From the IMG/VR virus record IMGVR_UViG_2595698668_000001, positions 32,001 to 96,000 of that record: DNA of 64,000 nucleotides; one strand, written 5' to 3'. The notes beneath the pieces are model-generated. The model searched no databases. It saw only the letters and a program-made list of their open reading frames with translations, and had not been told where the DNA came from. Source of the DNA: a virus. Lineage: Duplodnaviria > Caudoviricetes. Within the stretch, counting starts at the first letter, position 1. Every line of letters starts with the position of its first letter. Position numbers and translations under genes: made by a program. Of the stretch, positions 519 through 35,452 are shown piece after piece.

Positions 519-1004
519 TTATTCCTCGATAACAAAAATTTTATAATTGGATGGGAACATAAGTTCAATCAATGGGAATTTAATTTCTGGCATACGGGCA
601 ATCGCAACCATGTCACCTTCCGCAATGAAATCCTCAGAGCGAATGACTCCTTGTTCTACCCAAATCGCAGTAAACATTCCGCTGTCTGGGTAGAACAAGG
701 ATTCTACTAGTTTGGGTTCTTTCAATTTCACCTCTTGGCGTGGTGGATCAACCTCAACAATCACCCCTTCCATGATATCATTCATACTAAACATCAACCA
801 ACCAGTAATCCCGATACCATTAACTGTATCAACGGTCTGTTCCCATCGTTCACTCATAACACATTCCATCGGTGTTTTGGTATCGTAAATTTCGTCAACG
901 ATTGACTTGTATTGGTCTAGATCAAATCCAAGTTGCTTATAAAAATCCTTTTTCCAGTTTTCTTTAGATTTGTCATCTTTCCACACAAAATATCGTACTT
1001 TCAT
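519..1004 (-). CDS. Hypothetical protein
   Basis: 161 aa ORF abutting its neighbours; WKDDKSKENW motif shared with 1001-1291. Confidence 0.75.
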   Translation of the reverse strand: MKVRYFVWKDDKSKENWKKDFYKQLGFDLDQYKSIVDEIYDTKTPMECVMSERWEQTVDTVNGIGITGWLMFSMNDIMEGVIVEVDPPRQEVKLKEPKLVESLFYPDSGMFTAIWVEQGVIRSEDFIAEGDMVAIARMPEIKFPLIELMFPSNYKIFVIEE

Positions 1005-1291
1005 TTGAAAAGTTTCTCCACTTCGTCTTTCGATAATTCTACCAAAAATTTTTCGATGTCGTCGGTTGTGAAGATCGATATACCGTAATCGTAATCGATA
1101 CCATCGATTTTCATTACATGGTTTCGACCTTGGTAGATATCACACCCACACACAAGAACATCGAGATTCATCACATCGTTGGAGATTTCAACTAGCTTTT
1201 GATAACCACTGGCGGAAATAGACCATTTGTCTTTCGACGATTCATCCTTCCAACGATACACACGCAATACATGATTACTCATATCAATCAA
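1001..1291 (-). CDS. Hypothetical protein
   Basis: ATGA overlap with the downstream ORF; YRWKDESSKDKW motif. Confidence 0.7.
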   Translation of the reverse strand: MIDMSNHVLRVYRWKDESSKDKWSISASGYQKLVEISNDVMNLDVLVCGCDIYQGRNHVMKIDGIDYDYGISIFTTDDIEKFLVELSKDEVEKLFK

Positions 1292-1293
1292 CC

Positions 1294-1548
1294 TTATTCA
1301 AACCGGATGGTGGAATTTTTAAAGAGCAAACCAGAGCAAACAGCACCGTTTACAACCTGACCGGATGCCTTGTTGACTGCGGTAAACTTGGTTGCGAAGG
1401 TATCTTTTTCACTGCAACTAAACCAAGCATAACCGCCAACATGGACGTTGGTATATCCGTTTTGAGTCAATACACGGCGGGCACCGTCCGCATCAGTACA
1501 GGCAGACAGGGACAGTACAGCAAGAATTGCGATAATCATCTTTTTCAT
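1294..1548 (-). CDS. Putative lipoprotein
   Basis: MKK + hydrophobic stretch + lipobox LSAC; GGAGA RBS. Confidence 0.75.
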   Translation of the reverse strand: MKKMIIAILAVLSLSACTDADGARRVLTQNGYTNVHVGGYAWFSCSEKDTFATKFTAVNKASGQVVNGAVCSGLLFKNSTIRFE

Positions 1549-1687
1549 TTCGATCTCTCCATTTGTTCAATTAAAATACTAAGTCCAGACACAGAATCTT
1601 CAAGAAGGTCTACGTTTTCACTCTGGAATACATCTGAGTTTACTATAGCCAAGATACCAAGTAAAGTACCTATTACCAAATATTTCA

Positions 1688-2035
1688 TTATTCTACACCG
1701 GTTACCGATTCAAACTTACCTTCTGTAATAAGGAAGGTGATCTTGTCTGAACAATGATACACCATTTTTACGGGAACTTTACTACCGATCTTGAATTCAT
1801 ATTCTACACGAACCACACCAGAATTAAAAGTGGTTTCAACAATTTCGATTTTCCCCAAGTGTTCTTTACGAAGGTCTTTCAAGGTACGGACAATATCAAA
1901 CTTCAATTCGTCCGGAATGGCCGCAACCGCATCATAAAAGTCCTGTTCCTGAACTTTTCGGATCTGGCTTTTGATTACGTTGACGAATTTTTCGATTGAT
2001 TTATTGTTTACGTTGTCAATACGAGATTGTTTCAT
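1688..2035 (-). CDS. Hypothetical protein
   Basis: 115 aa ORF with AGGAG RBS in a tightly packed run. Confidence 0.7.
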   Translation of the reverse strand: MKQSRIDNVNNKSIEKFVNVIKSQIRKVQEQDFYDAVAAIPDELKFDIVRTLKDLRKEHLGKIEIVETTFNSGVVRVEYEFKIGSKVPVKMVYHCSDKITFLITEGKFESVTGVE

Positions 2036-2270
2036 TTTTAGCTCCTAGATTTGAATGTAAACATTACAGAAACGTGTGGGCTTCTATCGTGGGTTGGGAC
2101 AACAGACCAACATAATACATCATAACCTTTGGTAGATGCAATAGGATCTAGATCATTCAGTAAAGATTCTACGGAGTTCTCAAATGCCCGATATTCATAT
2201 TTTTTCAGAGACTCAAATTCTCTTGACAGTTGAACAAATGATTTTACAACAAATTTACCAGTCCACATAA

Positions 2271-2561
2271 TTAAACCCTCTCCAACATTGGAAGAATAAG
2301 AGTGTGCAACATATCCATGTAAGTCTGATGGTAGATGTCTTGATGGATCTCTTTGAGATATTCCATGGTGTCCCGCCCGTTGAAAGACCAGCTAACAACC
2401 GCAGCATTATCAATCTCTCGCAACGGGTTTCCGTTGAAATTAACAATGATGAAATTCTCACTTCGTGGGATCTCGATGAGCCATTCGTTTTTCCCAGCCA
2501 ATGATTTACCTTTTGAAACCACGACTTTTCGTACATCTTCATTGATAAATTGGATTTTCAT
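2271..2561 (-). CDS. Hypothetical early protein
   Basis: Start reassigned to ATG at 2561 (MKIQF), behind a GAGG RBS and the promoter at 2590-2617. Confidence 0.7.
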   Translation of the reverse strand: MKIQFINEDVRKVVVSKGKSLAGKNEWLIEIPRSENFIIVNFNGNPLREIDNAAVVSWSFNGRDTMEYLKEIHQDIYHQTYMDMLHTLILPMLERV

Positions 2562-2589
2562 AAAACACCTCTCGTTTGTTTGAGAACCC

Positions 2590-2617
2590 ATAGTACCAGA
2601 AACAAAAATGGAGTCAA
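2590..2617 (-). promoter_or_regulatory. Early sigma70-like promoter
   Basis: TTGACT-N16-TACTAT on the minus strand. Confidence 0.6.
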
Positions 2618-2643
2618 GCGATTTCTCGCAAGACCCCATAAAA

Positions 2644-2976
2644 TTATTTCTTGAGCATACCAGTAAGTTTGTGGTGTGCTAGGTTAAAGCTTTGTTGTGT
2701 ATCTGACTGAGACCGTTTCCAAGTAATCTTACCAAAATCCTCAATAGGACTGATGTTTACCTTGGTAATATCTACGTTTTCTTTCACCCAACGTTTCCAT
2801 TCCCCCATCTGGATTTCGTGGAATCGTTTAGCTTCGCGCATACCAGCAGTATTCATTTTTGCTTGAACACTGTTCAACATAGAAATGTATTGGTTTACAA
2901 TCCGGTTGTAATCCTTGGATGTTTTCATTTGAAACGATTCATCGATACGTTCGAAAAATTCTTTGTTCTTAATCAT
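2644..2976 (-). CDS. Putative capsid internal protein
   Basis: N-terminus MIKNKEFFERIDE resembles T4 internal-protein capsid targeting sequences ending in a gp21-type I-x-E site; basic mature part. Confidence 0.4.
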   Translation of the reverse strand: MIKNKEFFERIDESFQMKTSKDYNRIVNQYISMLNSVQAKMNTAGMREAKRFHEIQMGEWKRWVKENVDITKVNISPIEDFGKITWKRSQSDTQQSFNLAHHKLTGMLKK

Positions 2977-2987
2977 TTTAGTAATCC

Positions 2988-3902
2988 TCAGAACTTATTA
3001 GCAGCAACGCGATCATACACAATGACTTTCTTAAATTTGGTTGGCTTTTCGAAATCTTTATCGTCATCACTGTCATTGTCTGGAAAAGCTACCGTACCTT
3101 TTTTAAGGTCTAGTTTGACCACAAAGGTTTTTTGATCACCAAAACGTCCCCCTCCGCTCATATCTACACGAACAACCCCTTTACCAAAATATTTGGTATC
3201 ATGGCTATCTGGAATCATAAGTGCAAAAGTTTTATTGTTTGGCATAAGAAGATGACCAAATTGTGCAATAGAACCAGTTTCACGTTCTTTAGCTGGGGTA
3301 TCACTATATTCAATGATACCAAGGCTTTCGTTAATCGTCATAGCTTCCATCAATTCTTCTTCGATGTCAAAGATTATAACAGAATCTATATCATGTTCAA
3401 GTAATTCTTTTGCTTCGTTTAACATACCAACGAATTCATCTTGGATCATTAGGTATTCAACCATAGATTCCATCATTGCGCTTTTTTGACCAGCAGCAGT
3501 TTGTTTATGAGAGATCTTACCACCGGTTCCTTTTGGGAACACAGTAACAATATTGATTTCGCGACCTTTTACAGAACCAACTACAGAACGGTTTTCAGAT
3601 TGGGAATGGAACATATAAGTACCACTCTTAATCTTGTTTGCTTCTACGTGTTTTACCATCTTACGAGCAAAATCTTTCCACTCTTCCGCCGTTTTAGCAG
3701 CAGCTCGTTGGTGTGCACGGGCTTGAGCATGGACAGAACTTTGAACTTTAAACGCACCAACTCGCATAGAGACAGGTAGCTTTGATTGTTTACTAAGTTC
3801 AAATTCCTGATCTTTAGTAAGTTCGACCTTTTGATTTCGGCTTTGTGCCATTTGTTCGTCAAACCGGGTCAGGGTTGCGAACAAGTCTTTAGTTTTCAAC
3901 AT
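2988..3902 (-). CDS. Putative capsid-internal polyprotein with an RNase-toxin-like (BECR/DUF4258-like) domain
   Basis: Start at ATG 3902 behind AAGGA; S-x-H-A-x-x-R-x-x-x-R ... IVTVF pattern; acidic linker with repeated (L/I/M)-x-E sites; CCTAAATA upstream. Confidence 0.45.
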   Translation of the reverse strand: MLKTKDLFATLTRFDEQMAQSRNQKVELTKDQEFELSKQSKLPVSMRVGAFKVQSSVHAQARAHQRAAAKTAEEWKDFARKMVKHVEANKIKSGTYMFHSQSENRSVVGSVKGREINIVTVFPKGTGGKISHKQTAAGQKSAMMESMVEYLMIQDEFVGMLNEAKELLEHDIDSVIIFDIEEELMEAMTINESLGIIEYSDTPAKERETGSIAQFGHLLMPNNKTFALMIPDSHDTKYFGKGVVRVDMSGGGRFGDQKTFVVKLDLKKGTVAFPDNDSDDDKDFEKPTKFKKVIVYDRVAANKF

Positions 3903-4670: not shown

Positions 4671-5818
4671 TTCAAAAAGTCCTTACAAACAATGTTCTCA
4701 TCAAATACTTCTGGGTATCCAAGAAGGTTCACCAGACGTTGACGACATGCTACCACGTTAGATTCCACTATGTCAAAACCAAAAAGCTGATGAGAAATGG
4801 TTTCCTTATCATGACCCATATCTAGCCTACGCTCGGCAATCCGGTACAAAATGTTACCGTCACCACAGGCAGGGTCACAAAAGGAACCATCCCAGTTAAC
4901 AACACGGTCAAGTAACATATCAGTAACCACGTCTGGGGTAAAAACCTCGTGGGTGGATTTCTGTCGCTCTAAGTTAAACTCGGAAGCAACCCGATTCTTA
5001 TCCTCTGTGTGCGTCCCTGAATGGTATCTTCCTCGTGTTTCTACTTCATAGTAGGGTAACACACCCATATAGTCACAAATCCACTCACGAATCGTTGGAA
5101 GAGGTTTGGTGAGGTCTGGATATGGTACTGATGCCAGAGTACCAGAATCTAAATGCTGGTTGTTTTTATAAAGCGCCAAGAAAACTCTAGCATAATCCGA
5201 CTTGATATACTCCAAGAATTTATTCGCTTCTTCTAAAGTATCAAACCCATAGTGATGCCATTTAAGATTTGGTTTCGTTTCTACTATGTATTCTTTAGGG
5301 ACCATAGTAAAGAAATCTGCGTTAAACCTTTCCCCAGCGATTGGGACATGACCACGGATCAAACCAATATTGACGAAATAGTTTCCTTCTGGATTTTGGC
5401 TATTTAAAAGATTCTTTTGAACTGGTAACGCTTCATACAGCTTTGATATCTGGGTTCCGAAATAGTTTAGTTCATCAACTTTCATCCTATTTCTACCGTT
5501 CGTCATAGGCCCGTATACATCGATATACCCACTAAATGGAACACCAATTATTGTATGGGTTATGGATAATGGTACAAATAATCCAGCAGAAAAATAGAGG
5601 TTCCCATCAATTAGTTCCATTGATGTTATGTTTTCGCCGACTATCTTTTTAAATTCAACCACCCGTTTTTGTTCTTTGACTGGACGACGATTAAAAAATG
5701 GGGCAGATGGATGAACACAAATTATCTCTCTCCCAATAGAACTCGCTTTGTTAAAGAAGTCTAAGTGGAGATTCCTGTTATATGGTGGATTCATTATCAC
5801 GTAATCATATGAAATCAT
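4667..5818 (-). CDS. Amino-DNA (N6A/N4C) methyltransferase with circularly permuted motif order
   Basis: DYVIMNPPY (motif IV) at the N-terminus; EVFTP (motif X) and DPACGDGN (motif I) near the C-terminus. Confidence 0.85.
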   Translation of the reverse strand: MISYDYVIMNPPYNRNLHLDFFNKASSIGREIICVHPSAPFFNRRPVKEQKRVVEFKKIVGENITSMELIDGNLYFSAGLFVPLSITHTIIGVPFSGYIDVYGPMTNGRNRMKVDELNYFGTQISKLYEALPVQKNLLNSQNPEGNYFVNIGLIRGHVPIAGERFNADFFTMVPKEYIVETKPNLKWHHYGFDTLEEANKFLEYIKSDYARVFLALYKNNQHLDSGTLASVPYPDLTKPLPTIREWICDYMGVLPYYEVETRGRYHSGTHTEDKNRVASEFNLERQKSTHEVFTPDVVTDMLLDRVVNWDGSFCDPACGDGNILYRIAERRLDMGHDKETISHQLFGFDIVESNVVACRQRLVNLLGYPEVFDENIVCKDFLK

Positions 5819-28132: not shown

Positions 28133-29659
28133 TTACAGACCAGCCAGCGCACGAGCTTGGATGTCTTTCCAGATTTGGAAGTTAACAATCTTACCATCAC
28201 GGAAAGCAATTTTCAGTTCGCCTTGGTTGAACTCATCGGCGGTTTGGTTCTCGAAAAGAACATAATCACCATCAACCTTCTCAACCCGCAGACGACCACG
28301 AGCTGACTTCTTACTGTTCAACGCGGTTTTCGGGTTCTTCTGCATGGAGATATCAATACCATCAACGATGGAGTGAGTACCCTTGATTGCGATAGAGAAG
28401 CTATCACGAGAGGAATTCTTGAGGAAACCCCAGCTGCCAGTACCCATCAGTACGTTGGAAACACACCAACCAGCAGCAGCCATACCAGCATAGATCTTCT
28501 CTTGCAGTTCACCGTCAATCGCTTCGCCGTAGATGATACCAACTTTCGGATTCAGAACACGGAAACCCTTCTCATTCACAGTACCGCCGAAGATATCCCA
28601 CAGGATTTGCAGAGACCCTTTACGCTCATTCTCATCTTCTGCCTCTGGGTCACCCATAATAACCTCATAAGGGGTCTTAGGAGAGCTATCGGGACGAACT
28701 ACGAACTTACACAGACCATTAGAATCCGGTTGACGACCTTCGATTTCGTCTTTCAGAGCCAGAAGGTCTACAGCCAACAGACGGTAATAATCTTCGCTAT
28801 CAGCAACGTAACTCAGAATCCCAGTCGGATAAGTTTCAGTAAACAGGCGACGCAGGCTTTCACGTTCTGCATGTTCGAAACCCAGACCACGGAAGTAAGC
28901 GATACGCTGGGTTGCAGTTGCATGTTCGAATGCGTTAACAGAACAACCGATCAGTTCCTCGTCGCTATTAGCACCATAATAGTCTTCAATGTAATCGATA
29001 GCCCAACCAGTGTCAGTACCAGCACTGAACAGAAGCTGACCCATACCGGAGATAGTAGAATCTTCGATACCACGATGACCCCGAGCAGCGAAACAGTGGT
29101 TTGCAATCAGAGCCCAGAAATCATTTGCACCGGTTACCGGAGCCCACTTGTTAGAGGTCTTGCGATATTGAGCGGATACTACGGCAGCATTACACATGGG
29201 CCATACCATTGCACTCAGGAAGGTTTCCATGTAGTTAACCAACCAGAAAAACTCTTTCAGGGTGTTGCTAACTACGAAAGCCGGGATACCCATATTGATC
29301 CAGTTGCCTTCTTCAATTGCACGAACTTCCAGAGGCAGATAACCCAGATCATGAAGGTCACCAAGAGCTTTAATCATGGAATCGCCGTGGTCTTTACCGA
29401 TGGAGTTTTTTACACGACGTTCAAACCGGCGAATAACTTTCTCTTTGGACTTTTTGAAGAAGTTTTGATCCCACATCTCAACCATATATTGTAGGGAGAA
29501 TTGCAGGCCAAAGAATACCATTTTACCGTTTTTATGGATGGTATTAGCCAGACGGTCAGAACGGGGTGTCAGGTTGGCGATTACCAGTTCGGTTCCATTA
29601 ACATACTGATCAATGTGACCCCATTTGTAGAAGTCGGAAGTCATATGCGGATATTTCAT
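28133..29659 (-). CDS. Nicotinamide phosphoribosyltransferase-family protein (NadV/Namat-like)
   Basis: SDFYKWGH..QY, FFGLQ, LGYLPL, ETFLS, H.F..RG, EH, S.V.DS.D, VRPDS, IYGE.I and K.PKT...KKS..G motifs. Confidence 0.93.
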   Translation of the reverse strand: MKYPHMTSDFYKWGHIDQYVNGTELVIANLTPRSDRLANTIHKNGKMVFFGLQFSLQYMVEMWDQNFFKKSKEKVIRRFERRVKNSIGKDHGDSMIKALGDLHDLGYLPLEVRAIEEGNWINMGIPAFVVSNTLKEFFWLVNYMETFLSAMVWPMCNAAVVSAQYRKTSNKWAPVTGANDFWALIANHCFAARGHRGIEDSTISGMGQLLFSAGTDTGWAIDYIEDYYGANSDEELIGCSVNAFEHATATQRIAYFRGLGFEHAERESLRRLFTETYPTGILSYVADSEDYYRLLAVDLLALKDEIEGRQPDSNGLCKFVVRPDSSPKTPYEVIMGDPEAEDENERKGSLQILWDIFGGTVNEKGFRVLNPKVGIIYGEAIDGELQEKIYAGMAAAGWCVSNVLMGTGSWGFLKNSSRDSFSIAIKGTHSIVDGIDISMQKNPKTALNSKKSARGRLRVEKVDGDYVLFENQTADEFNQGELKIAFRDGKIVNFQIWKDIQARALAGL

Positions 29660-31437
29660 TTTCTCATTTTCCTTATTACATAATTTGAGTAAAGTATTTT
29701 TCTAACGTATCTTTTCTCATAGAATACGTTGTTTCTGTTTTAACGTCAACAAAATTTACAGAACCATCATCACAAATTTTACAAACCTGCCCATCCATCA
29801 CAAAATTATCAATCGCAGTAAGCCAACCGATGTTTCGATGGTCTCTCATAAATTCGACCCGATGTCTATCTGATTTGTAGTATATCGAGGTCACGTTAGG
29901 TTTAAAAGCAAATTTTTTGCGGTATTCATTGATGATTTTCGGGGTATCTTCAAATCCTACCATTCTGGTGAATTTACTAACAGGTTCCTCTTCAAACTGT
30001 TGAATATACTCTACCACGTCACCAAAGGAAAACAAAACGATTTTTTCTGATGAGTAACGATTTTTGATGAACACAAAAACACCATCTTTATAGTCAATCA
30101 CATAGCTACTTGACATGGTAAACCGGTCCAACCGACGACGTAGGTCCGCATAATCAGAAACATCCCCATCTGCGTTTTCCACCACATAAGGAACATTACC
30201 AATAAAATAAATTCTCATAAAACCAACCTTGTTCTTTGAATAACCAGATCGCCACCTTCCTTAAACTCTAGGTTTACAAGAATGCAATCACCTTCATCTT
30301 TGTAAGAATGTACCACCAAATCGGATAGATTATATCCAATGTTTTCGAGTGTGAGGTCGATTATTTTTGTCATAACCCGTCCGGGGGTTTGCCATTTTCC
30401 AATCATACAGTTTTAACCCACAAATGTTGATTATCTCGAACAAAACCATAAATTTTTTGTTCTACAGGAGACAAAGATAGACATCTTTCCATTTCTTCAT
30501 CTGACCACATAAGTTCCATGTCAACATTAATACCACGGATTACAATTTTGTGGATATCAATATAAGTTTTCTTTGTCCGTTTGTGTTCGTTCATAATATG
30601 TGCAAAAGCATCACATAGATATTTCATATCAATAGATGTCATATTATTTCTCCTTATTAGGTATGTGGATCATAACACGGGATCTACAATTTGGGCAAGA
30701 GTAAGTTTTCTTTTTTAATGAGTCATTATAGACCCACTTTGCAGTTACCATACTATATTCATGACGGCAACCATAGCAAATAAACTTGGTATCTCCCCAA
30801 TGTTCCTTATACCATTTGTCATCCATCAAAATTTGTTCCCATCACAGTCAATACGAAGAGATTCACTTTTTCCGAACTTTCGTTCCCCACAAATAAACCC
30901 TGCCCGTTTCGCTCGACAACTACCAAGACTCTGTTTATGAATGATACGTCCAATGAATTCATCCATATGGTCATGGTTTACCAGCTTAGAGAAAACTACG
31001 GTCAAAACTTTACCATCTTTAAGATCATACTCGATGAATTTATGGTCACCGATAGTATCCCGACCAATATCAATGATTTCGATATCATTTTCTTCCGAAC
31101 GGAACCAATCATGATATCGATCGAACATCCGGATCCGGTGTACCTTTTCCACTTCATCCATTGGAATTTCACCAATAATCTTGATGGTGATAGGTTGATA
31201 TGATTCGTGACAGTCTTCTTTCTTCAATACATATGTAATTGAATTGATCATTTCTTTTCTCCAAAACAGAGAGTACCGATAGCCAGATTATGAACGAGAT
31301 TCTTGATCTCTTCTTCGTTCATCCCATTCGCCTTTTCCCGCATCAACATTTCCTGAACAGATTGGTTAGCCAGAAGTTCATCGATACGGGAGTTAATGAA
31401 TTGGGTCATAGTTTCGATACTCATCATGTTTAGTTCC

Positions 31438-32235
31438 TTATTTTGTCCAGTCGAAACGAGTATATACGTTGTCGATGTACTGTGCAAGGTTTTCTTTGGC
31501 GTTGTAAGAAAAAATTCCATGGGTAACAAACAGGTCCACTCGAACCGCACCAGACTCTTTCAATACTTTACCAAGATTGAGGAAAGAACGACCACCATCA
31601 CAAATATCGTCTACGATCAACAACCGCTTACCTTTGACGTCAGAATTGAAACGAGGTTCGCTAACTTCACCAGTGTTGATATCGCGAGTCTTCATGGCTT
31701 CAATTACTGGAAGACCCGCATTTTGAGCTTGGGGATAGATCTTTTTCAGAGCACCCGCATCCGGGGATACAATCGCGTCATAATTACGACGGGAAATCCC
31801 TTGAGAACCCCAACACCACTGTTTGTTAACAGATACGTTATTGATCAATGCGGTTGATACATCGGAATGTGGATCTGTGAGACAAACCAAATCATATTTC
31901 ATAGAGTTGATGAAATCACAAAAGACACGCAAAGACAGGCTTTCACCTTCTGTCATAACTCGGTCTTGTCGAGCATAAGGGAGATAGGACAGGTCCAAAA
32001 CATATCGCACACCAGTCCCGAAAAATCGGTGGAGCGCGTCCGTAAGAATCGCCAGTTTCATGATATCGCCATCGTGGATACTTGCATCAACACGAACAGT
32101 TTCTGCCTCATAAGACCCATATTCAATAACATCTTTTGGAAGTTTGACGTTCCATTCCCCACCGGCAAACTGTTTAAAATCAACAATTGCATTACTGAAA
32201 TTGAAGTCTTTATAAGTAACAAACAATTTATACAT
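31438..32235 (-). CDS. PRPP-synthetase-family protein (Prs/Adps-like)
   Basis: F.GGE..V, YLPYARQDR, DPHS, VSPDAGA, K.R, IVDDICDGGRSF and VTHGIFS motifs. Confidence 0.93.
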   Translation of the reverse strand: MYKLFVTYKDFNFSNAIVDFKQFAGGEWNVKLPKDVIEYGSYEAETVRVDASIHDGDIMKLAILTDALHRFFGTGVRYVLDLSYLPYARQDRVMTEGESLSLRVFCDFINSMKYDLVCLTDPHSDVSTALINNVSVNKQWCWGSQGISRRNYDAIVSPDAGALKKIYPQAQNAGLPVIEAMKTRDINTGEVSEPRFNSDVKGKRLLIVDDICDGGRSFLNLGKVLKESGAVRVDLFVTHGIFSYNAKENLAQYIDNVYTRFDWTK

Positions 32236-32633
32236 TAGATAATCCTCATTGAAATTATATCAGAGTTTAGGACGAGATATTCCCCTTCCTGTTTCAAGAT
32301 CCTAAGTAGAATCTTTCTGTAAGGTTCATAATCACAAAATTTGCGGATCATAAACCTGATGTTATCGATTGAAAGAACAGGGACTGCTTCTACTTCATAT
32401 GTATGCCCGTTGTCTGTCTTCTGGAAGTATGACCCAACAGACCTAGCCATCTTAGCACAAGAAGAAAAGCTATTCATCATGTGGTCATCATATGGATTCT
32501 TAGACGACCATCTATACAAAACACACGGTTTATTATTAAATTTTTCTTTCGCATAGTCAACAAGAATTTTAACTTCTTCGTCAGATACGGGGAGTCCGTC
32601 AAGATAACGGAACAAAACAGAATGTGGGGTCAA
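32235..32633 (-). CDS. Putative R-S-E clade ADP-ribosyltransferase-like protein
   Basis: LYR41, S55-F-S57 and Q-E116-G-E118-YLV in canonical order; TTG start overlaps the NADAR stop; TAATG coupling to the Prs-like gene. Confidence 0.5.
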   Translation of the reverse strand: MTPHSVLFRYLDGLPVSDEEVKILVDYAKEKFNNKPCVLYRWSSKNPYDDHMMNSFSSCAKMARSVGSYFQKTDNGHTYEVEAVPVLSIDNIRFMIRKFCDYEPYRKILLRILKQEGEYLVLNSDIISMRII

Positions 32634-33079
32634 AGTTGTTCTCTAATCTCGTTCAAAATGTCACAAAACTCTTTTTCTGTCAGAATTGTGATGTGTGGAT
32701 CCTTACAACCCATGGTATGGGCTAATACATGTGGTTTTGAGTGCACCAGAGCCTCTAGGAAGCTTTTGTTTTGTTCGGCCATCGAAAGATATGCGTTATA
32801 CAAAAGATTGCTATACGCTTCGCTGAGGCGGTTTACCGGCTTTCCTTTATACCACATAGTAAAGTCTTTCTGCCATCCCCTGTTAGAATGGCAAACCTTA
32901 TAAACTTCATGACCTCTCAGATTGTTTATGTCTGGGGGATTTTCATATTTGAGGCTTTGTAAGAAAGCCTCAATCGTCCGATAATACACACCATCGAATG
33001 TAAATGGGTGTTCTGTGAAGTTTGACAATTCGCGTTCGACCCAATCCCGACTCCCAGAATAGATGTCAATGATTGCCAT
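32630..33079 (-). CDS. 30.3: NADAR-family protein (T4 gp30.3-like)
   Basis: LSNF..HPF..DG....IEAFLQSLK, NAY...A.QNK.F..AL..SK..VL.H and TILTE.EF.D.LN match T4 gp30.3 as recalled. Confidence 0.85.
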   Translation of the reverse strand: MAIIDIYSGSRDWVERELSNFTEHPFTFDGVYYRTIEAFLQSLKYENPPDINNLRGHEVYKVCHSNRGWQKDFTMWYKGKPVNRLSEAYSNLLYNAYLSMAEQNKSFLEALVHSKPHVLAHTMGCKDPHITILTEKEFCDILNEIREQL

Positions 33080-33913
33080 ACTTCTTTACCAGATCATCAT
33101 AACCACTACTGTATCCATAATCTGTGGTCTTGTCAATCTTAACCTCAATTTCTGCACTATCAAATTGTTCGAAATATCCCGTTACGAAATCCATATCAAT
33201 TTTGATCCGTCCATCAGAATGGTGAATGTTCATGGATGAGAAGAAATCGAAAGGATCTTCTACATCCTTGGCCCATGGACGACGAGAAGCCAGACCCTTA
33301 ACCATTTCCTGTTTTGCTGGTGTCCAACGTTCGTTGTTGTATGCATTATAGAACTCATTGAACTCGTAGATCTCAACAAGTGCCTTCATAGCATCATCGT
33401 TGTCAAACCAAACTGGTGCTAGGATCCGGTCGGTGTCGTATGTAGTAAAACTATCACCAGTTCTATATTTTACCCGAATAATGAATTTCATACATCACCT
33501 TACTTGTAGAAAACGAATGATACAGATTGAAGTTTCCCACCCGTAACAACGGTCCCAATATCGAAGTTTTCTTGTTTGGTCATACTTTCAATAGAACGAC
33601 CCATCCGACAGAGTTGTTCAATCATTTTCTCACCACAATCTAGTTTCTGATGGAATACAATGACCCATCGAGCAGGGGCAAAGTCATTTGGTTCCAAATC
33701 CTTGATCTGGATGGATACATGCTTATCAAACCCCTTAAGACAAGTTGGTTCATAATATTCATTCATCTGAACCATACGTTGGAGGGTATTGATAAACTTG
33801 TTCATTCCATATTGATATCGGAGTCCGCTATATTTTCCGAAGCCCAGTTTATTACCGAAAACGTCAATCTCGTTTTTGAAAACTTTCTTTGCGTAAGTCG
33901 TGATTTTCATTTT

Positions 33914-34591
33914 TTATTCCCCAAAATTGGTATACTTAGATTTAAATTCCATCAGTTTTTCTTTTGCGACTTTTTCTTTTGTAGTGAGGACGTCGATCTC
34001 TTTGGAGATGCTTGTCAATTCACCATTCAGACGATTGTATTCATCATTCAAAACTTTGAATGCATCTTCAATTGATGGTGTAGAAACAGATGTATGTTGC
34101 TCTTTCATATCTTGAGATGGCTCTACCGTACCAAACAACATGTTGATTTCAAGGAGAATTTCAAAATCCACATGAGACTCGACTTCCTTCCTGATAGGGC
34201 GACCATTAGATGTAACTGAATCCTTCGACTTCACAACCTTGAGTTTACCAACAGTCAATCCGTTTGTTACTTGGGCTACGGTAGTAATAAGATGGTGAAT
34301 ATGTCGAGCTACACCAGTCCGGTATGTTTTGGTATTACTTACTTTAATAACAACTGAATTTGATGATTGTTGGAAATCACAAGAATAATTAATATGACCG
34401 TAAACATCAAACGAGGTTCGTGGGCCATATTCCCTCATAAGATTGTGAAGGAATTTTTTGTTTAGGATACGAGCTGTATATGTTGCGGCCTGACGTCCGT
34501 TAAGCGGTTTCCGGTTATCGTTGTATGGGTTTTTGTATACATCAACCTCACCACGAAGATACTGATGTACATATTTTACAAATGAGTTCAT
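33914..34591 (-). CDS. Hypothetical protein with C-terminal coiled coil
   Basis: 225 aa ORF in the operon-like run. Confidence 0.75.
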   Translation of the reverse strand: MNSFVKYVHQYLRGEVDVYKNPYNDNRKPLNGRQAATYTARILNKKFLHNLMREYGPRTSFDVYGHINYSCDFQQSSNSVVIKVSNTKTYRTGVARHIHHLITTVAQVTNGLTVGKLKVVKSKDSVTSNGRPIRKEVESHVDFEILLEINMLFGTVEPSQDMKEQHTSVSTPSIEDAFKVLNDEYNRLNGELTSISKEIDVLTTKEKVAKEKLMEFKSKYTNFGE

Positions 34592-35041
34592 AATTTATTC
34601 CTTTTCGTATTTTACAAGTTCACAGTCTAAACGATCTTCTTCAAAAAGAAAAGACATATTTTCTAATTTCCTTTCTTCACAGATCTCTTTGGTGGTTGAC
34701 AGTTCGACTTGGAAAGTCTCACACACAGGATTGTTGTTCATATCGATTACACATGATGTAAGAATCAAAGCAAACAAAGTTTCCATATCAATCACCTCAA
34801 CTGTTTCAATATCGATATCTTCTCAGATCTAAACACCACTGTCAATAACAAATTTATGTTTACACCGACGACACCGCATATCACAAATCTGATTGAACCA
34901 GTTAGTGATCTGGATCTGTTCAGAACCACATTCAGAACAAATTGGTTTCATCTTAGAAACGGCCTTACGACGATCAACCAAAATCTCCATACCATCAAAA
35001 TCAAAATCAACTTCAAACATTCCAGTTCTCCAAAAAATAAA

Positions 35042-35081
35042 ACGGTATAAGGATTATCTCCCTATACCGTGAACATGTCAA
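35042..35081 (-). promoter_or_regulatory. Promoter with -10 in the loop of a terminator-like hairpin
   Basis: TTGACA-N17-GATAAT; stem ACGGTATA..G/C..TATACCGT followed by a T-run. Confidence 0.65.
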
Positions 35082-35452
35082 CCTATATCTTTCTTCAATT
35101 CAGATATGATCCACTCAGCGAGGTCATACCTATAATCCCCATAAACACCATCATACATACCAGCATCTTTTCTCATCATCTTGTAGAATATGTCAGGTTT
35201 AACCCCACACCCAGAGGGGATAGGATAACCCAACATACCAGAATAATGAGGCCATGTAACAAAAGTCTCTTGAAGGATCGCGTATATCGTCCCAACAAAA
35301 GATTTTGTTTTGTCTGGCATTATATGATTTTGCTTTTTCTTGAGATCGTAATAAATGTTAGAACAAAGACCCGCAGTTTGTCTATAATTTGTAAAATCAT
35401 TTTCAATTGCGGTTTCAAGTGACTCAATAATAGACTGCTTTATTGTTTTCAT
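35078..35452 (-). CDS. Hypothetical protein, paralog of 62841-63215
   Basis: GLC, W.H.SG...YP and YG..R..LA motifs shared. Confidence 0.75.
   Translation of the reverse strand: MKTIKQSIIESLETAIENDFTNYRQTAGLCSNIYYDLKKKQNHIMPDKTKSFVGTIYAILQETFVTWPHYSGMLGYPIPSGCGVKPDIFYKMMRKDAGMYDGVYGDYRYDLAEWIISELKKDIG

Follow-up and report, generated by a model that had tools for sequence, protein, structure and literature searches.

In a 64,000-nucleotide stretch of viral DNA (the window; positions 32,001 to 96,000 of IMG/VR record IMGVR_UViG_2595698668_000001), we analysed three contiguous minus-strand genes encoding a gp30.3-type NADAR, a 132-aa protein read from a TTG start (32235-32633; hereafter the middle open reading frame, ORF) and a Prs-like protein, with a NAMPT-like gene farther downstream. 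The middle ORF is a real, strongly constrained gene, and its conserved residues suggest that the product probably has a fold derived from ADP-ribosyltransferases (ARTs). Whether it is also an active transferase of the Arg-Ser-Glu (R-S-E) class, for which we infer both catalysis and target, appears evenly balanced. The reading we favour, with similarly divided confidence, is that the middle gene encodes a stripped-down, divergent R-S-E (cholera-toxin/Mod-like) ART, which founds a very small family; the gene lies between those for NADAR and for Adps of the NAD+-rebuilding system NARP1. The trio lies within an early-type cluster of small minus-strand genes handling NAD+ and ADP-ribose.

The initial annotation had pointed to LYR41, S55-F-S57 and E116-x-E118 in the middle protein. 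All three elements are present, as L-Y-R41, S55-F-S57 and E116-G-E118, and their five key residues are invariant in alignment A3, which comprises eight sequences and reaches relatives of 33-34% identity. In total, 15 of the 132 columns of this alignment are invariant, among them Y40, R41, S55, S57, E116 and E118. In the two most distant members, P0010 and P0011, the motifs read LYRF / S-T-S / E-Q-E and VYRW / S-T-S / E-K-E. The order R, S-T-S, E-x-E is the textbook R-S-E pattern. R41 stands in an aromatic-R context (L-Y-R41-W) at the end of strand 1, a strand (E37-40) predicted by a low-confidence model only, and E116-G-E118 is followed by a hydrophobic Y-L-V-L stretch. A deliberately generous search pattern, R...SxS...ExE with hydrophobic context, retrieved two of the 1,599 six-frame ORFs of the genome, as compared to 0.3 per 1,599 expected from 20 shuffles; the second match is a DNA polymerase fragment. 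Among the 326 ORFs of 100-200 aa, the middle ORF alone carries the pattern. The motif trio is rare, but its occurrence by chance is not impossible.

A protein-language-model search considering named clusters only listed eight rows, the first seven of which are ART-fold families. These are three DUF4765 clusters (scores 0.91, 0.90 and 0.90), a DRAT cluster (0.89) and one cluster each for ADPrib_exo_Tox (0.84; the family is assigned to 20% of the cluster members), Mod_ADP_RT (0.84) and NarE (0.84), followed in the eighth row by DUF7587 (0.83). DUF4765 corresponds to the ART-like domain D4 of the toxin CNFY, according to an extract of PMC7883292, and the ART-fold status of DRAT, NarE and ADPrib_exo_Tox is taken from the family names. 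That the search returns the very superfamily predicted beforehand from the three motifs is, in our view, the strongest single piece of support for an ART-like protein. The middle protein thus has its nearest named neighbours among ART-fold families, albeit with scores of only 0.84-0.91, with 74-137 of 256 features shared across the nearest named clusters, and with no Pfam match to any of these families.

The T4 proteins ModA and ModB provide the most detailed comparison. Compared by hhalign with seven aligned T4 ModA/ModB family sequences, the middle-ORF family falls short of significance (probability 0.5%, P 0.11), yet the alignment is co-linear over 98 columns and pairs all three motifs: LYRW falls on LYRG of Mod (R73), NSFS on SFS (S99) and EGE on E171-x-E173. 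Beyond the E-x-E element, the two share the same succession of an aromatic-hydrophobic strand, a turn and a further strand. Like the Mod proteins, the middle protein is a small, early-type phage protein with a helical N-terminus, an L-Y-R strand, an S-F-S/T element and E-x-E with a terminal hairpin. The differences concern the lack of significant similarity to ModA and ModB (P 0.04-0.69), the length (132 aa versus 200-207), the spacing between R and S (14 versus 26 residues) and the genomic neighbours. We propose that the protein would consist of two N-terminal helices, a strand 1 with Y-R at its end and, after a short loop, a strand 2 with S-x-S, followed by a hairpin and two helices, and finally by E-x-E heading a strand-turn-strand unit.

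Several lines of evidence establish that the middle ORF is a gene. Comparison of the window with relatives gave ratios of nonsynonymous to synonymous substitution rates (dN/dS) of 0.08-0.11 in the three pairs in which dS is unsaturated, the first 15 residues of the protein are conserved, and the TTG start is kept in four of four sequences. The initial annotation had called the ORF unannotated, which holds for phage avDM6, where it is omitted, but not for vB_AdhaM_G2, in which a hypothetical protein is annotated, nor for phage 65, where a truncated form is listed. The family, phrog_18982, is without a Pfam match and is very small, comprising 16 Aeromonas phage records and a few metagenome proteins. 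A tblastn search detected the middle ORF in 16 of 50,697 phage records, all from Aeromonas phages, a word-indexed search of 5.8 billion proteins recovered four family proteins, and a full phmmer scan of 1.84 billion representatives gave five proteins at E<=1e-3. Among these five, P0004 is the protein's own cluster, P0008 is the truncated form of phage 65, and P0010 and P0011 (147 and 197 aa, 33-34% identity) are true distant relatives, as confirmed by reciprocal tblastn. The fifth, P0009 (1,013 aa), was judged spurious, as it is a repeat protein in which only query residues 54-92 match, in four stretches. A profile search for further relatives returned 7 of 975 candidates, all already known, and scans using P0010 and P0011 as queries yielded no further homologues. 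The IMG/VR scan revealed two loci, both from known phages, and the JGI metagenome scan one partial locus. A locus from the genome collection (L009) was rejected as a false positive, since it lies inside a 319-aa ORF and matches the typed motif pattern only.

Further observations concern individual family members and look-alikes. In the phage 65 record (L002), the middle ORF is truncated or frameshifted and appears as two tblastn pieces (5230-5550), which counts against the proposed function; phage 65.2 and avDM6 carry it intact. In the same record, the Namat gene is also annotated in two pieces, of 1,392 nt and 126 nt (1494-3024). A 98-aa frame on the minus strand of the window (1004-1297) begins with ...VYRW...SISAS..., resembling the first two motifs of the middle ORF, and reaches E 0.06 with the family profile; this resemblance is probably due to chance. 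The genome also carries, outside the window, a pair of neighbouring small ORFs that are paralogous (115 and 130 aa; L014, 1287-1634 and 1631-2023; genome 19287-20023), both of which end in ...HRKNKP. The 115-aa ORF matches the C-terminal half of the middle-ORF profile (E 2.7e-4 among 1,599 ORFs), without R and S-x-S.

A number of results weigh against an ART. Regarding the language model, the scores are modest, the best of 0.91 being reached with 136 of 256 shared features; shuffled proteins attain 0.9 in 4-10% of cases, as stated for the tool itself, and the search may lean in part on the same motifs that had been noticed at the outset. The structure prediction and fold search suggested by the initial annotation for 32235-32633 gave a weak model that matched no ART. 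AlphaFold2 reached a predicted local distance difference test score (pLDDT) of 43.7 with four sequences, and with eight sequences a pLDDT of 59.8 and a predicted template modelling score of 0.53, with the motif regions 35-65 and 117-132 remaining below 50. With this model, Foldseek against the PDB found no ART (best E 0.77), VIA-align against 48,161 chains likewise found none (best Z 4.9), and a BFVD search retrieved the own family only. Because the model is weak, these searches are uninformative on the fold. At the sequence level, no ART family was matched in Pfam by six family members at E<=10, and sequence and profile searches of the PDB with the middle ORF retrieved no ART; ubiquitin matches in the profile search were discarded as sums over repeats, with a per-stretch E of about 2,000. 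The Pfam result weighs little, since T4 ModB, a proven ART, is itself without a match in the library used. Comparisons with hhalign were not significant for ModA (P 0.69), ModB (0.039), the Mod family (0.11) and the Alt ART domain (0.24), and these values are not separated from the P of 0.18 obtained for an unrelated control protein. The latter, encoded by the ORF that precedes Adps in Escherichia phage Av-05, had also been considered as a relative of the middle ORF and was rejected; in Pfam it gives weak helix-turn-helix matches only. Finally, with only 14 residues between R41 and S55 as compared to 26 in the Mod family, the protein would have to lack the helix that normally separates strands 1 and 2. 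Thus, the ART reading of the initial annotation gains from the invariance of the motif residues and from the ART-fold nature of the nearest named language-model clusters, but it lacks a confident fold, a fold match or a significant profile match.

In view of these negatives, the middle protein could instead be unrelated to ARTs, i.e. a lineage-specific small early protein of another fold, in which the conserved R, S-x-S and E-x-E are structural or otherwise used and whose position between NADAR and Adps is an accident of mosaicism. Such a protein would account for the lack of significant profile and fold matches, and it would fit with a motif pattern for which chance alone predicts about 0.3 occurrences per genome and which also turned up in a DNA polymerase fragment. 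The weak profile match to the 115-aa ORF, whose 'E-x-E' lies in a Lys/Glu-rich stretch, and the presence of a 194-aa gene between the middle ORF and Adps in a metagenome relative point in the same direction. On the other hand, seven of the eight named language-model rows are ART-fold sets, the superfamily having been predicted beforehand, the distant relatives carry the canonical S-T-S, and the alignment with Mod is co-linear across all three motifs, including the final strand-turn-strand after E-x-E. The absence from Pfam, being shared by ModB, means little. We consider a non-ART protein rather unlikely, though it is the alternative that survives best. In that case, the region would be no more than a typical mosaic of early genes, two counter-defence systems that are already known (AdfN and NARP1) among them.

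Another possibility is that the fold is ART-derived but catalytically silent, i.e. that the middle protein merely binds NAD+ or ADP-ribose, or serves to mislead or inhibit a defence enzyme by which the host consumes NAD+, or acts as a substrate donor to Adps. DUF4765, the nearest named cluster, sets an example, as neither NAD+ binding nor ART activity was found for it in CNFY (PMC7883292), and aRad1 is a precedent for a small phage protein that occludes the active site of an NADase (bioRxiv 10.64898/2026.01.28.702374, section 8). The short spacing between R and S may also mean an incomplete NAD+ site. However, silent ART domains usually lose the triad, whereas here R, S-x-S and both E residues are invariant across ~30% identity at a dN/dS near 0.1, which makes a mere binder improbable.

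The genes flanking the proposed transferase can be named with more certainty. Together with Namat, they are by homology members of the known counter-defence systems AdfN and NARP1. The product of the upstream gene (149 aa; 32630-33079, minus strand) matches PF08010 (Phage_30_3) with E 5.1e-33 and 114 bits at a cut-off of 36, belongs to phrog_652 and aligns over its full length (residues 1-149) with T4 gp30.3/AdfN at 39% identity (E 1e-28), in support of its designation as a gp30.3-like NADAR in the initial annotation. The alignment matches the SNF, E-x-x-x-Q-x-x-K and C-terminal VL-x-H stretches to those of T4 gp30.3, and H121 in V-L-A-H-T coincides with the His of V-L-K-H-S in T4. A His in the last strand is said in PMC11125620 to distinguish phage NADARs, and H121 would presumably be this catalytic residue. 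T4 gp30.3 is the protein named AdfN; this NADAR strips DNA of the ADP-ribose attached by DarT1 and shields T-even phages from DarTG1, as outlined in extracts of bioRxiv 10.1101/2024.07.11.602962 and PMC11125620. The upstream protein is thus predicted, from homology, to be an AdfN-like ADP-ribosyl glycohydrolase. In T4, the downstream neighbour is gp30.2, in contrast to the trio analysed here; a gp30.2 homologue (49% identity, E 9e-56) is located outside the window at genome 133056-133607, about 68 kb from the NADAR gene, so that 30.2 and 30.3, neighbours in T4, are far apart here.

The Prs-like gene downstream of the middle ORF (265 aa; 31438-32235, minus strand) carries Pfam Prs domains, matches phrog_619 at 4e-86 and encodes a protein with 41.5% identity to the homologue of Vibrio phage ICP1 and 38.3% identity to that of phage Gary. 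Both homologues are biochemically characterised ADP-ribose pyrophosphokinases (Adps), as described in part of PMC13586617 and in bioRxiv 10.64898/2026.01.28.702374, section 7. The same part of PMC13586617 gives as the signature of Adps a short PRPS-like core without the C-terminal alpha11-alpha12 module. With 265 aa the protein is short, and its alignment to a 326-aa PRPS stops near residue 273; it thus combines a PRPS-like core lacking the C-terminal module with homology to characterised Adps enzymes, in line with the earlier view of this gene as Adps-like. The NAMPT-like gene (508 aa; 28133-29659, minus strand) matches phrog_448 at 8.6e-165, and its product reaches E 3e-97 with the solved structures of SpbetaL1 Namat (nicotinamide ADP-ribose transferase; PDB 9W5X and 9W5W), as compared to ~3e-37 with canonical NAMPT, which agrees with its prior assignment as Namat. 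Judged by these homologies, the phage has NARP1, consisting of Adps and Namat, with the two genes 1.8 kb apart. As in extended forms of NARP1, namely NARP1-AP with the Macro phosphatase Adpp and the form with RyDEP, further ADP-ribose-handling genes stand beside Adps, a situation also seen in Vibrio phage Gary. It differs from NARP1 by the 1.8 kb and six small ORFs between Adps and Namat, and from the extended forms in that the added genes are NADAR and an ART-like gene.

Assuming that the favoured R-S-E transferase is active, the following scenario may apply. Early in infection, the middle protein would use NAD+ to ADP-ribosylate a host macromolecule, and would thereby stand in for Alt, ModA and ModB, which are undetected in this phage. 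The AdfN-like NADAR would represent the enzyme type that removes ADP-ribose from DNA bases, and NARP1, through Adps and Namat, would rebuild NAD+ from ADP-ribose and nicotinamide, keeping the NAD+ pool from falling. In searches of the genome, PF03496 gave no match at E<=1, with the control T4 Alt scoring 5.8e-36, the Mod profile matched none of the 1,599 ORFs below E 0.2, and the best tblastn hit for Alt, ModA or ModB (E 0.013) lies inside a tail-fibre-like ORF. DRAT, ADP-ribosylglycohydrolase and ADPrib_exo_Tox were likewise sought in the phage's own genome and none was found. Hence the genome is without detectable Alt, ModA and ModB, and the middle protein, if it is an ART, would be the sole recognisable one in the phage.

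Published precedents make a pairing of NADAR and ART reasonable. In the myxobacterial YbiA-YarT system, the gene for a minimal ART toxin of 114 aa directly follows a NADAR gene (PMC11125620, section 2.2). NARP1 operons are known to take up additional enzymes that supply the pathway with ADP-ribose, namely Adpp (bioRxiv 10.64898/2026.01.28.702374, section 7) and RyDEP. Iyer et al. (PMC9503650, in extract) noted NADAR genes in the vicinity of NAD+ salvage genes and of ARTs in T4-like phages, and excerpts of PMC12945103 and PMC11125620 describe NADARs that erase the guanosine and cytidine ADP-ribose marks of the pierisin-family toxins ScARP and Scabin. In comparison with YbiA-YarT and DarT1-NADAR, the locus in the window shares a NADAR gene that is adjacent to and co-directional with a gene for a very small ART, here a candidate; it differs in that YarT and DarT are of the H-Y-E/D type and belong to bacterial defence or toxin modules, whereas the present motifs are of the R-S-E type and the genes belong to a lytic phage. 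Of the toxin-antitoxin arrangement, the gene order alone is comparable. In the full-text literature search, we found no publication that brings together NADAR, ADP-ribosyltransferase, phage and NARP1.

ScARP and Scabin belong to the R-S-E class. A tighter functional link is conceivable, in which the middle protein ADP-ribosylates nucleic-acid bases, NADAR acts as its antidote by stripping the same marks, e.g. from phage DNA, and NARP1 recycles the nicotinamide and ADP-ribose. The order of the genes corresponds to that of YbiA-YarT (PMC11125620), as NADAR comes first and overlaps a small candidate ART, and NADARs do remove base ADP-ribose written by ScARP and Scabin, as reported in the relevant parts of PMC12945103 and PMC11125620. 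In addition, T4 AdfN works best in the T-even phage context, which its authors credit to modified DNA (bioRxiv 10.1101/2024.07.11.602962); this could allow selective repair of phage DNA. Against such a pair, it depends on an ART fold that is unproven, and its enzyme types do not correspond, as DarT and YarT are H-Y-E/D and not R-S-E ARTs (PMC11125620). Moreover, the role of NADAR known from bioRxiv 10.1101/2024.07.11.602962, i.e. countering host DarT1, needs no phage ART.

The distribution of the genes bears on the same question. The source is, by nucleotide similarity, a T4-like Aeromonas phage related to phage 65 (Ishigurovirus); its virus record comprises 231,743 bp and is rated 98% complete. 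A 3-kb stretch around the trio matches 16 phage records, all of them Aeromonas T4-like phages: 12 of them, P19 and vB_AdhaM_G2 being nearest, align with 93-95% identity across >=98% of the query, and the four records of phage 65, 65.2 and avDM6 (Ishigurovirus) align with 75-77% identity across 70%. Each of the 16 has the three genes side by side. The conservation of the three-gene order in other phages, which the initial annotation had raised as a check, is therefore borne out within these Aeromonas records, but confined to that single lineage. A lack of conserved linkage, named there as grounds for refutation, thus applies in part. While a gp30.3-like NADAR occurs in 1,506 phage records and an Adps-like gene in 1,472, the middle ORF occurs in 16, so that all but 16 NADAR records are without this partner. 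NADAR neighbours differ in all three other T4-like lineages examined (T4, phi-Grn1 and Riv-10), and Adps neighbours differ in phages Av-05 and Gary. As the trio is lineage-specific, the gene neighbourhood carries little weight for a shared function, and this speaks against the proposed context of the transferase. We regard a write/erase pair as unlikely, and a closed write/erase/recycle circuit, as envisaged in the initial annotation from adjacency within this one lineage, as equally or somewhat more so. The least probable version is a self-contained ADP-ribose cycle, in which a 132-aa ART marks host DNA or RNA bases as a shut-off weapon, NADAR clears the phage nucleic acid and NARP1 restores NAD+ so that the attack costs none; if true, the transferase would rank among the smallest ART-like proteins.

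Mobile elements have apparently entered this neighbourhood in some relatives. The 194-aa gene inserted between the middle ORF and Adps in the metagenome relative (L006, 312-896) looks like an HNH-type homing endonuclease. In avDM6, an opposite-strand gene annotated as 'putative endonuclease' (L003, 2353-3324), absent from the window, is located just upstream of the Namat-like gene; it, too, probably stems from the insertion of a mobile endonuclease.

Should the middle protein prove to be an active transferase, it would represent a new, very small family of phage ARTs and the first case of a phage with an ADP-ribose writer, an eraser and NAD+ rebuilding side by side. It would then add to the wider picture of NAD+-centred conflict between phages and bacteria, provide a compact scaffold for defining the minimal requirements of the ART fold and hint at how T4-like phages without Alt, ModA and ModB reprogram their hosts.

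The layout of the locus agrees with the overlaps reported initially, which we read in the DNA. The junction TTGA is a 4-nt overlap of the TTG start of the middle ORF with the TGA stop of NADAR, and TAATG is a 1-nt overlap between the TAA stop of the middle ORF and the ATG start of Adps. The TTG/TTGA arrangement is kept in four of the four relatives read (window, vB_AdhaM_G2, AS-zj and avDM6). However, of the 12 successive junctions on the minus strand from 28133 to 34591, 7 overlap, as counted from the ORF list. Overlaps are thus the norm around here and the coupling does not set the trio apart, which counts against a write/erase pair. The NAMPT-like gene, announced as lying 1.8 kb downstream, was found on the same strand at a distance of 1,778 nt from the Prs-like gene. 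The gap contains six small early-type minus-strand ORFs of unknown function from the ORF list (180, 63, 79, 61, 141 and 59 aa; 29676-31427). Three of the small ORFs between Adps and Namat were tested, and all of them fall into PHROG families of unknown function; we have not assigned the six to the NAD+/ADP-ribose system.

Promoter-like and terminator-like sites in the region are no commoner than in shuffled sequence. A strong terminator-like hairpin on the minus strand (35042-35081), made up of 12 pairs with a T-run behind them, shares sequence with the best promoter-like site of the region, TTGACA-17-GATAAT (11/12), between the ORFs 35078-35452 and 34829-35020; this site may mark the start of a transcription unit that includes the trio. 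At the 3' end of Adps, a listed 100-aa ORF with a GTG start (31248-31550, minus strand) overlaps the gene. Its PHROG match spans residues 42-100 only; relatives are annotated with a 59-aa ORF instead (31248-31427), which is probably the real gene.

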